NCBI RefSeq assembly: GCF_035594765.1
Contig: NC_085845.1
Span: forward strand, 166,238,897 to 166,302,896
Direction: 5' to 3'
Source of the DNA: Anolis carolinensis
Lineage: Eukaryota
DNA: 64,000 bases
Positions 29,401 through 38,400 of this stretch are shown in pieces. Each line of letters begins with the position of its first letter. Within the stretch, counting starts at the first letter, position 1. A program made the position numbers and the translations under genes. A model generated the notes under the pieces. It did no database searches. It saw nothing but the letters and a program-made list of their open reading frames with translations, and had not been told where the DNA came from.

Positions 29401-32400
29401 AATTCATATCAGTGCATTAAAAAAATAAACAGGCAATCCTTAATTATATATGGCAATAATTTAAGTTTCATTTATTCATTTCTTTTCTAACTCAACATTA
29501 AATGCATCTATCACATATAAAGAGTAACTATTTCAAAAACGTATCAGTGTACTAAATATTATTATTAAATGACTATGTACACTTTAAATCTTAGTCCAAA
29601 ATGTTTTGCAAGCATTTCAAACTCGTACAGTGAGGTTCTCACACCTGTTCTCTCCTATTCTACAAATTAACATAGTAATTCTCTGAAATGGTACTGTGGG
29701 TTAGGGCGAGGATTTCCATTGCAATGGAATATACTCATGGGTCCCATGAGTATGCTCCATTGCAACAGAAATCCTAGCTCTAAAGTTGCAAGGAGAATTG
29801 ATGAATCTGATTTTTCAGTATTGGGTGCTTTTTCTGTATCTTGTGATCCTTAAACATTCTTCATTGGACCAATGACATGCTCACATGTATTTTAGAAAAT
29901 GTGAAGATAGTGGGAAACTATCTTACTAGGAAAGTCTTTTACATCTGGGTAGTAGTATTCCGTGAATTCAATATGAATGGCTGGCATTTCTGGTGGGAGG
30001 TACAGAGACTTCTTATTACAAGAAATAAGAGTTTTAGGAGAACGGCGATACTGCTCTGCTGTAGAAACCTGAAAACACAACATTCAATATTTAAACAAGT
30101 ATAAGGACAGGTTGCTTACCTGTAACCATGTTTCTTCGAGTGTACTCTGTGAATTCACACTAATGGAGAGACTGCGCTTGCGCAGGTTCCAACGGAAACT
30201 CTTCCCAAGCTAAAGTTTAAATTTTGGCGGTAGCCACGCCCCCCGTCCCCAGAGGGCATATAAGGCGGCCCTGGGCGCCCGCTCTCCAGTTCCTGCGCCG
30301 CCAAGGCAACGAGAAAGGAAGAGGGTTTGCCAGAGGGGAAGGAAGGGCGGGCTTGTGTGAATTCACAGAGTACACTCGAAGAAACATGGTTACAGGTAAG
30401 CAACCTGTCCTTTTTCTTCGTGTACTCTGTGAATGCACACTAATGGAGACTAGCACGCTTAGGTCCCGGATGGTGGGACAAGGCAAACCTTAATCACAAG
30501 TTGATGTCCAAACACATCTTTATTAAACATAAATAACATGGCCCGAAGGACCCGTATAGTAACACAAGCATCATGCCAAGAGAGGAACTTGGTAGGACAC
30601 CAAATAAACAATTTCAAACATGAGGAAAAAACAAGTACTGTGCATTATCTCCGAAGGGGAGAGAAGGAGAAGTACGTAAGGCACAATGGTTCAGGAAAAC
30701 AGTGCAAATTAGAACATAGATATGGCACAACGAGATGGCCAAACACGGGGACATCTGATAAGAAAGAACCATTGAGGAGGGACCCTCCAGGGGGCCGAGT
30801 GGTAGGTAAGTATCGAGGATAAATTCCTCAGGACAAACAGGAGGACAAAACCGATCTAGCAAAGGCTGAGTCTTTTAAGGCTTTTTGGTCTATTCTATAG
30901 TGAGAGACAAAAGTAAGGGGGTTAGACCAGATCGCCGCCTTACAAATAGAGTCCAGCGGGATGCCCCTCAAAAAGGCAGTTGATGTGGAAAGGCCTCTCG
31001 TCGAACGCGGGCGAACGGACGAGGGAGGTGGACGTTTAGCCAGTTCGTAGGCAAGTTCAATGGCCTGAGCAATCCAGTGAGATAACCTTTGCGAAGAAAT
31101 AAGATTACCCAGCTTATCTGGGGCATGGGCTATAAAGAGTCTCTGAGTCTTACGAATGTCCTTGGTGCGGTCCCGATAGAAGAGAAGAGCCCTACGGACG
31201 TCGAGGAGATGCAGCCTCCGTTCCAGAGGAGACGAGGGGTTCGGAAAGAAAGCGGGGAGGACAATGTCCTGGTTAAGGTGAAAAGCCGAGACCACCTTGG
31301 GGAGGAAGGTGATGTCCGGGCGGAGAACGGCTCGGTCGTGATGAAAGCGAAGATAAGGTTCATCAACCCTAAGGGCCGCCAGCTCCGAGGGTCTGCGAGC
31401 CGAAGTTATGGCCACCAGGAAAACTACTTTCCAAGAAAGTAGGCGCAGGTCGGTAGATGCTAGAGGCTCGAAAGGAGAGGAAGTTAGCTGGGAGAGCACG
31501 AGCTCGAGGTTCCAGCCCGGCGTAGGTGGCTGGGATGGCGGACGGATGTTGTTGTACCCCTTTAAGAAGGTTTTCACAAGATGGTCAGAGAATAAAGACG
31601 GTCTACCATGTTGCTGGAAACACCAGGAAAGAGCAACCAGATAAGACTTCATAGAGGAAAGCGAAAGCTCCTGATCTGCAAGAGTCATAAGAAAGTCCAA
31701 GACTATCGGTACCGAGGTCGGAAAAACGGCGATGTCCCGAGACCAGAGAAAAGCACGGAAGCGGGAGATTTTATAAGTGTATGACCTGGTTGTAGCCGGC
31801 TTGTGGGCCGCCTGGAGGATCTCCTGCAGGTTTTGCGGGAGGGAGGTTAGGCAAGAATTCTCCATGCAGTGAGATGTAGAGAGGGGAGATCTGGGTGCAG
31901 GATCTGACCGTTTTCTCTGGATAAGAGGTGTGGCAGAAGAGGTAGAGTGAGAAAGTTCATTTTGGAGAGGTGGAGAAGAGCCGAATACCAAGGCTGTCGA
32001 GGTCAAGCTGGTGTTATCAGGATCGCCGATGTCGAAATCGACCGGAGTCTCTGGAGGACCTTCGGTATCAGGGGGAACGGTGGAAAGAGGTAGATCGGTT
32101 CCGACGACCAGTCCAGAAGGAAAGCGTCTCCCAGACAGCCCGGAAAGGAGGCCGGAGGAAGTCTCGCGCCGTATCGAGGTAGTTGCGCGTTCTGGGGAGA
32201 GGCAAAGAGGTCCAGAGTGGGGAATCCCCACTTTCGGAAGAGAGAGAGAAGAGTCTCGGGATCGAGCATCCACTCGTGGGAGGAACTCGTCATCCTGCTG
32301 AGGGCGTCCGCCAAGTCGTTTTGGATCCCGGGAAGATGGACTGCCAGGATCTGTATGTTGCGGCTTATGCACCAGGACCACAGCTGAGAGGAAAGGAGCA

Positions 32401-35400: not shown

Positions 35401-38400
35401 GCTCTCTTAAAGGCGATTTTCATCGCGGAGGTTGATGGAGGAGACCCAAGGTGGGATCGAATCGAAGACACAGAGGCCACCGAGCTCGACGTCGAGGAGG
35501 GGCCAAGTCTGCCAGAACGAGTCGACATGGTGACCGTGCACGGCGGTTTGACGGGCTTAGCTGTTTTGGAGGCCCTAGACGCCCTCGACGAAACTGAAGA
35601 GGCCTTAGCAGCCGGTGCCAACATCGGTCTCAGGTTCAACGTCGACGACGTGCCCGATGTCGACGGAGTGGGCTCAGGGGCGAGCGACTTCTCGTAGAGC
35701 GCTGCTCTGAGTCTCGCGGCTCTATTTTTCCTTGCCTGAGCCGTTAGGGCTAGGCAAAAACGGCAGGTACCGACGACATGGGCCTCTCCCAGGCAGAAGA
35801 GGCACTTGGCGTGGCCGTCGGAGTCAGGAATTTTAGCAGCACACTGAGTGCAGCGTTTGAAGCGAGTAGTAGACATGAGAATCCGAAGTGAACCTTGCGG
35901 CGGAAAAAAAGGAACTGGAGAGCGGGCGCCCAGGGCCGCCTTATATGCCCTCTGGGGACGGGGGGCGTGGCTACCGCCAAAATTTAAACTTTAGCTTGGG
36001 AAGAGTTTCCGTTGGAACCTGCGCAGGCGCAGACTTTCCATTAGTGTGCATTCACAGAGTACACGAAGAAAAAACAATTATTTCTCATCTTGTCCAGTTC
36101 TAAGGACATTATGAATCTTCAATTATATTGTGGGTAAATTATTATTATTACTATGAATCTATAATACATGTTCCTAAGTATTAGATTTATACACAGCTCA
36201 GAAAAAGTGCTTGTTCTGATAAAAGTAACTACCAAATAAACATAATATACAGTAAGATGTCTTAAAAAGATAAAATTATAAAGTATACTTCTAAAAGATA
36301 CTTTTATGTCATTGAATTAAGAAAAAACAAGGGGTAAATAATTTATGAACAACTTAAAGTTCTACACATTAAGGACCTCTTTATCAAGCAGTAGAATTGC
36401 TTGGCAGAAATAGCAAAAACCTTATTTTCTATGCAACCTTATTTTATTTCCCAGATACATTTCTCCAGGACTGAAACCTTGTTTTATTTCCCAGCTACAT
36501 TATTCCATGACTGAAAGAATAAAGTCTCTGTAATCATGAGGACAAACCATTTTCAGGACCAAATGGTATAACACACATAGTTAAGACCTACTAACCTTAG
36601 CCCCCCTCCACACAACTGAATAAACTCTCACATTATCTGTTTTGAATTGGGATATGTGGCAGTGTGGACTCAGATAACCCAGTTCAAAGCAGATACTGTG
36701 GGATTTTCTGCCTTGATATTCTGAGTCACATGGCTGTGTGGAAGGGCCATTAAACTATATCTAGATGTACGCATTACAAATCTCAAATTATAAGGTTGGG
36801 GGAATCAAGAAACAGGTAAAGCCGTAATTTTAGCAGCAATTAATACTGAAATATACCTGATAAATATTAACATCTGCAAGCCTAACCACAACAGGGCTGC
36901 ACATTAGCTTATCCATTGGTTGCTGTGGTGACACAGAGGAAGGCTTGGTGACTCCTTTTGGTATTTGTTCCTTGCCTGTAAGAACCAAAGACATAAACTA
37001 AATAGTAGACATAGTTTATCCTTAACTGAACTCTCTCCTTGACTTTGTACTAGAAGACAGCCTATAAAACAGGATTGAAAAATGTATAGCTTCCTAGATA
37101 TGACAGAGCTGTAACTTCCATTTGTTTCCATTTGCTACACCATCTCAAAGGCTGTCTAATTCCCAGCCCTGCTATAAAGTCTCTTTTGAATTGCATTTCT
37201 TATAATCATGATACTGAAACATTGCTCTATATTGTGAACTACCAAGAGAACCACCTAGTAGCAGACGACCTAAAAAAAACCCAACTAAATTAGATTTGAA
37301 GAAGCCTATTCATTCAGATTAACACTGTTACTATTAAATTGATTTTCTAAAAAACATATGACAGTTACTTAAATCCGAGGTTTCCCTTTTGCGAAATCCA
37401 TACAGATTGTTCCTGTAATCACTAGTCTGGAAAATAGAATTACGATTTGTTTGATTAAATATTGCCAAATGTTAAAGGGGAAAACCTAGCCAAATAATTC
37501 CACCAGAAGTGCAACATTGGAACTGCAAAGCCCACCGGCTTTGGTAAAGGTCTTTCAATTTTCTCATCATAAAACAACAATAAACACAGTAAGATACCTG
37601 CTTGTGTGTGCTGTGGAGACTCCTGAGGTGATGATTTAGTGGGAGAATCTACATCTTGATCCTTCACAGCCTGCTTAAGCAATTCAACATTGCTTTTGAA
37701 CTCTTGCAATAATTCTTCTGCCCATAAACTTCTGGCTTTGGTAGCATCACTAAAATGCATCCAATGGCTGCAGCTGTCATCTATATTAGACACAAATTAA
37801 AAATAATTCCATAAACATGTTACTAAATATAAAATCATTTAGCACATAAACAATTTAGAGTCATTTCAAAAGAATACTTCTTTGTCAGTTTGCAAACTCC
37901 TAGTTCTAATAAGCCAAAGGCAGTAACAGTTCAATGAAACAGACTTTCTGGTTTAGTTAAAATTACAGCTAATTCGACATCCCCCTTTCTATATAGCCCA
38001 GTCAAATCTAGTTGGGAAGCCTGAATCCTATTCTAAAAGTAGTCCCTCTGAATCTATGGAACTTACATAAGTGTTGTATCACCAAGCTACCACTGATTCA
38101 GTAGGACCTGTCTACATGGACAACAAAAGCATATTGACCTCATATTGGCTGCTATCCTTACATATGTCATTCATGATGATTTACATCCCAACCTGATCTT
38201 TTTTCCTATAATGCTTTCAAAAACTGCCTGATCAATTGCCTTTAACCCACATCAGAATGTGAGGGATCAGAATGTGGCCATTCCCGATAGCAAGTTTCAC
38301 ACTGGAGCTGGGAGAGGAGTTAAGGAAGACCCAAACTGGGGAATGAGAGGTAATAAGGGCCAAGTTACATGATCTTTCCCACCAGGAAGCAGGCTTGGTC

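Follow-up and report, generated by a model that had tools for sequence, protein, structure and literature searches.

How does a DIRS1-like retrotransposon join its ends to the genome when its junction and its target carry different trinucleotides? The question is raised by a copy in a 64,000-nucleotide (nt) stretch of the green anole genome (Anolis carolinensis, contig NC_085845.1, positions 166,238,897 to 166,302,896; hereafter the window, with positions counted from its first letter). In the published model, an identical trinucleotide is present in the circle and in the target and is retained at both ends (PMC3266345; PMC7192593). The copy in the window departs from that model: its junction triplet is CTT, its target is TTT and its ends are TTT and CTT, with at most two bases shared. 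The best explanation, which we consider probable, is a polymorphic AcDIRS1-type copy that was placed in G-TTT-A, without a target site duplication (TSD), by a recombinase crossover of C/TT with T/TT (the slash marks the crossover). The element itself is ordinary, as the literature already covers AcDIRS families and contains polymorphic anole Dirs loci by the thousand. Its value lies in a pair of filled and empty alleles resolved to the base, according to which integration can do without 3-bp identity, and this refines the model of DIRS integration in a way that can be tested.

Termini and empty allele of the DIRS1-like copy

The element and the parts of its ends were located as follows.

30103 to 36074, minus strand: DIRS1-like retrotransposon copy (AcDIRS1-type), 5,972 nt with all terminal T counted
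35910 to 36074, minus strand: left terminus (left inverted terminal repeat, lITR), starting with TTT where the junction triplet is CTT
30103 to 30294, minus strand: right terminus (right inverted terminal repeat, rITR, and right extension), ending with CTT
30355 to 30447, minus strand: internal complementary region (ICR; lICR 30410-30447, rICR 30355-30412), spelling the junction
36072 to 36074, minus strand: target TTT of the empty allele, joining 30102
36026 to 36036, minus strand: cluster of three mismatches between left and right inverted terminal repeats (ITRs), just inward of the ICR-covered stretch
30107 to 30123, minus strand: hairpin in the right extension, found by folding, with a 6-bp stem and a 5-nt loop, containing GGTAAG

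The copy belongs to the DIRS1-like superfamily (order DIRS). It has an open reading frame (ORF) for a tyrosine recombinase (YR), a reverse transcriptase (RT), an RNase H and a methyltransferase-like (MT-like) domain, non-identical ITRs with a right extension, an ICR complementary to both outer ends, and no TSD. The preliminary description, which was made from the letters of the window, had assigned the element to the same group, and the RT, RNase H, YR and ITR/ICR anatomy bear it out. With AcDIRS1 compared by its published lengths and motifs, the family is most likely AcDIRS1 or a close sister; the terminal geometry, the motif spacing and the RSTR box agree with AcDIRS1. The GC content is 50-56% inside the element and about 35% in the flanks, and the observed/expected CpG ratio is 0.86 against 0.22 and 0.29, so that the element is distinct from its flanks. 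A search of viral contigs returned no relatives, and the comparison set consisted of 80 metagenome relatives with about 40% protein identity.

On the minus strand, the left end follows its flank as G-T6-CTTCGTGTAC, with the T at 36069-36074, and the right end reads CAACCTGTCC-T2-ATACTTG, with the T at 30103-30104. The ICR reads CAACCTGTCC-T5-CTTCGTGTAC at 30401-30425, which is the end-to-end junction. The counts of six T on the left, two on the right and five in the ICR, given in the preliminary description, were thus confirmed base by base. The T-run excluded, a stretch of 56 nt in the ICR equals the right end and one of 32 nt the left end, both with zero mismatches. It also holds the end-specific variants (GAATT and CGAGTG; GAATG and CGTG), and their reproduction by the ICR, as described before, is exact over these 56 and 32 nt.

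Contigs from four of 24 sequencing runs were compared with positions 29600-36600. A single contig of run X2 connects 30102 with 36072 and skips 5,969 nt; its 323 letters consist of 284 and 39 with zero letters between them, and its depth is 49.3, with a flank depth of 47.6-49.3. The empty allele, seen in one of the four runs examined, reads AATAATTG-TTT-ATACTTG. This is the TSD-free site that had been predicted from the T counts, with the flanks G-TTT-A as expected. The five T of the ICR and the three T of the target add up to the eight T at the ends, with no TSD and no base gained or lost. In run X1, contigs pass from the flank into the two ends of the element for 25 and 26 letters without gaps and show 2 T and 6 T. 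A contig of run X18 enters the left end with 2 gaps, and run X17 has neither the filled nor the empty form among the pieces listed. Loose contig ends of run X17, at 30110, 30142 and 30373, point to sister DIRS families with other right extensions.

The X2 joint could in principle be a later precise excision, of which tyrosine recombinases are capable, or an assembly artefact, and it was found in a single contig of a single run. However, the depth of the joint equals the single-copy depth of the flanks, its 284 and 39 letters are unique flank, and its sequence is exactly that predicted in advance. Polymorphic Dirs loci are also abundant in green anoles (6,873 loci with a mean frequency of 0.15; PMC7561263). 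We therefore regard an origin of the joint other than the ancestral empty site as very improbable.

The empty allele in X2 indicates that the insertion is polymorphic. The X2 contig has GATC inserted at 29844, so the empty and filled haplotypes differ nearby, and the filled X1 contig departs from the window at 36176 and 36187. Family contig pieces at least 99% alike make up about one third in both runs (854 of 2,673 in X1; 1,443 of 4,397 in X2), indicating that the family expanded recently and that its copies are not all highly diverged. The family may still be active today, as the preliminary description had suggested. At least 13 near-private substitutions, five of them CpG losses, were counted among the 38 in-element variants listed (of 345 variants in all), so the copy is not brand new and its age is only bounded. 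The 204 identical paired positions permit up to about 1.5% divergence by the rule of three. Therefore, the insertion can be called recent in that it is still polymorphic, but "very recent" goes beyond the bound. Taken together, the insertion is a full-length, young and polymorphic, but defective, member of a known family.

The ITR arms extend over 155 nt with 4 mismatches, and their inner 116 nt are identical, in agreement with the roughly 115 bp given before. Piednoel et al. describe the outer differences as "divergent ITR" (PMC3266345). The earlier proposal that the ITR asymmetry is structural holds for the outer part covered by the ICR, but three mismatches (36036/30168, 36033/30171 and 36026/30178) lie outside that stretch and hence were not templated by the ICR. 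They fall within 11 nt; the probability of finding all of them in the first 13 of 127 positions is 0.0009, and that of such a cluster anywhere is 0.02. The cluster coincides with the point at which the nascent left ITR, after copying the right ITR, is expected to change over to the ICR as template, and no third template for the three mismatches was found within the window. At least the first mismatch likely belongs to the left ITR of the copy, because the two bases that follow in the ICR are those of the right ITR and because the lICR is 40 nt in AcDIRS1 and 38 nt in the copy. The cluster could stem from template-switch errors or from one complex mutation.

Position of the crossover

Three crossover points are possible in the copy, all inside the shared TT. 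A TTT x TTT core fails here because it requires at least three T at each end and the right end has two. The statement of the preliminary description that such elements integrate at TTT does not hold for this copy. The AcDIRS1 reference copy starts with CTT, ends with CAT and has the junction AAG (PMC3266345). When this copy (CTT..CAT) is combined with that of the window (TTT..CTT), C/TT is the sole point that fits both.

We examined whether other elements follow the same pattern, using the published triplets (Piednoel Table 3) after exclusion of three of the 28 elements (two 2-nt junctions and one chimera). Mismatches were present in eight of the 25 elements, and all eight are positioned as a crossover at N/NT predicts: six at position 2 of the end, one at position 3 of the end and one at position 1 of the start (P = 0.004 under random sides). 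Since these eight reference elements lack an identical triplet, such a triplet does not define the family. Among the metagenome relatives, 11 ends with flank were available; three loci (L003, L012 and L070) end too near the junction and were not counted, and the ICR of L075 has an AT-repeat. At right ends, the match to the junction ends after position 1 in L027, L060 and L030 (the last with a low anchor score), whereas L045 and L050 have complete left starts. Junction triplets vary among families (CTT, ATT, AGT, GTT, GAT, AAT and TAT). From these sequence comparisons, the crossover is likely fixed at N/NT, with no need for a 3-bp identical core. Experiments on the specificity of DIRS recombinases are said to be lacking (PMC7192593), and no report of a fixed N/NT crossover in DIRS was found in the literature covered, outside which lie the founding papers of Cappello, Goodwin and Poulter that possibly describe part of it.

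The classical account would explain the same ends by recombination between a double-stranded circle and genomic DNA that share an identical 3-bp core (TTT x TTT), followed by slippage of the T runs to six and two. It is the standard account (PMC3266345; PMC7192593) and agrees with the total of eight T (5 + 3), with the TTT described at both ends of Xenopus families (bioRxiv 2021.08.05.455354) and with the identical triplets of 17 of the 25 published elements. However, it predicts five T on the left and three on the right, so that the observed counts require a T gained at one end of a young insertion and a T lost at the other, and the gap-free X1 contigs show six and two again. The one-sided position of all eight published mismatches also argues against it, and we consider strict identity unlikely.

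Several observations weigh against a fixed crossover and an AcDIRS1-type copy with an ancestral empty site. The empty allele is known from one contig with 39 letters on its short side, and the X1 end contigs lie below the 31-letter bridging threshold, with X1 possibly the source sample. The CAT end of AcDIRS1 is possibly a later point change, and the registers of the published triplets were the authors' choice, with a possible bias. The outcome at metagenome anchors is mixed, as the right ends of L008 and L017 run through and L020, which starts late, is an exception to a fixed crossover. The automatic 8-mer anchor, which is unreliable at a low score, disagrees with the manual register for three low-scoring junctions, those of the window copy, L024 and L075. 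The match with AcDIRS1 is one of published lengths and motifs, not of sequence, and the 3' untranslated region (UTR) of AcDIRS1 is 45 nt shorter (515 nt vs 560 nt in the copy). Judged from the 40 of 345 variants listed, an in-frame stop in pol, described below, may or may not be private to the copy. Finally, the circle is reconstructed here from the ICR, from which contigs cannot tell it apart.

Form of the integrating DNA

A route drawn from the Cappello model and the anatomy of the copy would have transcription start where the left ITR has its inner edge, and the RNA would be reverse-transcribed into an antisense cDNA. The right ITR would be the template for the inner left ITR, and the ICR would be that for both outer ends and would join them. 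The tyrosine recombinase would then carry out a single crossover, C/TT of the ICR-rebuilt junction into T/TT of the target. Where contigs connected the right end with the ICR, the connection was put down to mapping artefacts. The possibility that reverse transcription primes itself on the ICR was dropped, as DIRS-1 without an ICR still makes cDNA. The preliminary description had reconstructed a circular intermediate. The ICR does spell its junction, but the circle itself is a reconstruction, and DIRS-1 was reported to form mostly linear single-stranded cDNA, with failed amplification of the junction (PMC7192593).

We compared two forms of the donor that would produce a crossover at N/NT. In one, a double-stranded circle undergoes two staggered strand exchanges that tolerate heterology, as in Tn916 and Tn1549, and repair or ascertainment leaves the appearance of a single crossover. 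Such exchange is the known mode of these transposons. The fold of the recombinase is in line with this form, since its AlphaFold model (pLDDT 84) has Cre as the best match (Foldseek E 4.6e-9; Z 19.6, rmsd 4.3, 302 aligned), followed by XerH (Z 17.0), XerA (Z 16.5) and Tn1549 Int (Z 16.1), and the integron integrase IntI (2a3v) is fifth (Z 15.3, rmsd 5.0, 268 aligned). Malicki et al. favour a rapid conversion to a double-stranded circle (PMC7192593), and annotation prefers full-length copies. However, a second exchange some bases away should yield copies in which target bases replace junction bases on one side, and these were found in none of the 25 published elements and possibly in one (L020) of the 11 metagenome ends. 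We give this form somewhat less than an even chance.

In the other form, the junction of the antisense cDNA folds like an integron attC site, the YR exchanges one strand with the double-stranded N/NT target and replication resolves the product. The ICR region folds as a long imperfect hairpin on either strand, and both junction strands fold (-30.8 and -29.7 kcal/mol). To examine relatives, 81 loci were reduced to 53 with the C-terminal half of the YR and to 43 in which 150 nt or more follow it. Of these 43 post-YR regions, 32 (26 animal families) contain a hairpin of 28 bp or more and 11 do not; it is composed of an outer stem, an internal loop and a small terminal hairpin, at the base of which the junction triplet lies. 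The cDNA of DIRS-1 is single-stranded and antisense and serves as integration substrate, and its junction resisted PCR (PMC7192593). IntI1 inserts folded attC into GWT (positions -1 to +2) with a single cleavage after the first base (bioRxiv 2022.09.11.507474), a pattern equal to the GTT and GAT and the ATT and AAT ends of DIRS elements. However, the outer stem arises by construction from the inverted repeats, so that its shuffle z-score is no test, and the terminal hairpin alone is not significant in the window copy (z -1.6 and -1.3). The YR fold is also nearer Cre than IntI. The analogy suggests single-strand integration, which we consider possible though doubtful. A double-stranded circle with heterology-tolerant exchange is accordingly the likelier donor of the two. 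An attC-like junction or a link of DIRS to integrons or to single-strand integration was not found in the literature covered, outside which subscription and founding papers largely lie.

Coding frames

The coding frames of the copy are listed below.

33807 to 35876, minus strand: ORF1, gag-like, with an N-terminal Cys/His cluster, ending in TCC-TGA-C (stop at 33807-33809)
31847 to 34144, minus strand: pol frame (RT, RNase H, MT), +1 relative to gag, from domain matches and alignment
30828 to 33806, minus strand: ORF3, 992 open codons in the gag frame right behind the gag stop, from frame analysis
last ~345 codons of ORF3 (first Met 31865), minus strand: tyrosine recombinase, from alignment and fold model
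31383-31403, minus strand: R box of the recombinase
30996-31007, minus strand: RSTR of the recombinase
30894-30908, minus strand: region of the catalytic Tyr of the recombinase

ORF1 had no match in a Pfam search. The pol frame matched RVT_1 (E 8.8e-21) and RT_RNaseH (E 2.6e-5). In the MT-like part downstream of RNase H, the DLFA and xPP motifs were aligned with a spacing equal to that of AcDIRS1, and a weak match to PCIF1 (E 0.0037) lay below the cut-off. This part contains an in-frame stop at 32003-32005 with 51 further open codons behind it. Among 27 pol homologues, 25 continue beyond the stop position, and the remaining two records end earlier. Because of this premature stop the copy is not intact functionally; it is complete, as had been claimed, in the sense of full length, but not in function. 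It is presumably unable to make full-length pol and would be copied only in trans.

In the recombinase, the R, box II and Tyr columns align with those of 34 relatives, and the Pfam match to a SAM-like domain (E 5e-4) lay below the cut-off. Its best named relative is an A. carolinensis protein (75%). We considered whether RSTR in box II is a defect of this copy and rejected it, as AcDIRS1 and AcDIRS2 have RSTR too and the two closest proteins (P0121 and P0122) have R there.

Transcription signals and the gag stop

Candidate transcription signals lie at both ends of the element.

35912 to 35945, minus strand: TATA-like box (first T at 35945) and, at a distance of 29 nt, initiator-like CCAGTTC (A at 35916), from motif match
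30519 to 30524, minus strand: sole AATAAA of the element strand, followed by the ICR 72 nt downstream

Promoter motifs were matched to the TATA and initiator consensus, and the pair at the inner end of the lITR is the transcription start predicted from sequence. Upstream of the TATA-like box, the ITR contains TGCGCCTGCGCA and CCACGCCCCC (36016-36027 and 35959-35970 region, minus strand), which we take to resemble NRF1 and KLF/SP sites. An RNA that ends at the AATAAA would lie upstream of the ICR and therefore be translatable but unable to rebuild the ends.

The motif GGTAAG is located at 30120-30115 (minus strand), 2 nt upstream of the inferred C/TT crossover, and lies inside the terminal hairpin in the window copy. 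Across the loci surveyed (L002-L077), 19 of 26 families carry it on the right-end junction arm (200 shuffles gave a mean of 1.1 and a maximum of 6), and seven read CAGGTAAGTAT, a full match to the 5' splice site and U1. In 18 families its distance from the apex of the hairpin is 25-38 nt, a little inside the stretch that the ICR covers. The motif could mark an exit of the RNA from the element by splicing or a protein-binding arm. Contigs of X17 and X18, which we guess to be RNA, cover the element, and no clear splice joint was seen among 15 of 18 joints listed, which is neutral evidence.

Behind the gag stop, more than 450 in-frame open codons lead to the recombinase. In a survey of 38 deduplicated loci, this stop was TGA in 30, TAG in seven and TAA in one. 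TGA-C was found at 20 of the 38 gag stops and at two of 35 recombinase stops taken as control (Fisher P 9e-6), and at all 38 loci pol is in +1 and already open at the gag stop. The context of the gag stop may be biased because the pol frame overlaps it, and splicing is an alternative. TCC precedes the stop at six of the 38 loci and in the window copy. A +1 shift at TCC before a stop is antizyme-like. The sequence context suggests that the gag stop is read through towards the recombinase and that a +1 shift into pol possibly occurs, so that Gag, Gag-Pol and Gag-recombinase may be produced from one leaky stop. The GGTAAG motif or readthrough in DIRS was not found in the literature covered, with the same papers outside its scope.

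Host gene and surroundings

25412 to 26893, minus strand, like the element: large BLTP3B (UHRF1BP1L) exon, part of the host gene, with 94% identity to Anolis sagrei

The element probably lies within an intron of anole BLTP3B. Frames at 43849-44271 and 45902-46306 (minus strand) resemble upstream BLTP3B exons as judged by eye, and such exons would put the element inside the gene. A 41-bp inverted repeat with a 1-nt spacer and 85% complementarity lies at 29701-29783, 320 nt from the right end of the element, and is possibly the remnant of a miniature inverted-repeat transposable element. Elsewhere in the window, a 5'-truncated CR1-like long interspersed nuclear element with a long open RT frame is located at 58461-60277 (minus strand), and its 3' end recurs at 23867-24117 with 96% identity. 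A GC-rich array of ~90-nt palindromic units, several of whose frames are open, lies at 40358-40884.

Comparison with known systems

The copy is closest to AcDIRS1, with which it shares a divergent lITR of 26 nt, a right divergent part and extension of 53 nt, an rICR of 58 nt and a gap of 60 nt between ICR and ITR. The steps between pol motifs (192/492/330/222/78; PMC3266345 Additional file 3), the TTDSS, ADALSR and LFPP motifs, the RSTR of the recombinase and the junction triplet CTT are also alike. AcDIRS1 differs in its length (5,938 nt vs 5,972 nt in the copy) and starts with CTT and ends with CAT where the copy starts with TTT and ends with CTT. The long ORF3 overlap is present in the copy but not in AcDIRS1 as listed, and the internal pol stop and the three extra ITR mismatches belong to the copy. 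Full-length green anole Dirs of ~5.7 kb were described in or near genes at low frequency (Bourgeois et al. 2020; PMC7561263) and resemble the copy; the available text of that study, in contrast, is without junction analysis.

DIRS-1 of Dictyostelium discoideum likewise has non-identical ITRs, no TSD, a hairpin near its 3' end and an ICR whose two parts are complementary to the outer ends (33 + 55 nt vs 38 + 58 nt in the copy), and it starts transcription at the inner left ITR, as predicted for the copy (PMC7192593). The model for DIRS-1 expects the same trinucleotide at both ends, whereas the target of the copy differs from the junction at position 1.

The recombination of attC with attI or attG by IntI resembles the proposed reaction in a foldable junction (predicted in the copy), with an internal loop and a terminal hairpin upstream of the crossover, and, likely, in a triplet that is cut after its first base and tolerant at its middle base (bioRxiv 2022.09.11.507474). 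In contrast to integrons, DIRS elements are retro-transcribed, their recombinase is Cre-like rather than IntI-like in its best fold, and their triplet varies between families and does not follow the invariant GTT/AAC. Integrons are thus a comparison of working principle; the copy is not a member, and single-strand use by DIRS is hypothetical. Tentatively, and with less than even likelihood, DIRS1-like elements could be a eukaryotic counterpart of integron cassettes, with an attC-like site on the antisense cDNA rebuilt by the ICR, one strand exchange at N/NT that requires neither a double-stranded circle nor a 3-bp identical core, an RNA 3' boundary at GGTAAG and products of a leaky stop. If true, single-strand integration would account for the single-stranded cDNA and would tie a class of eukaryotic retroelements to integron chemistry.

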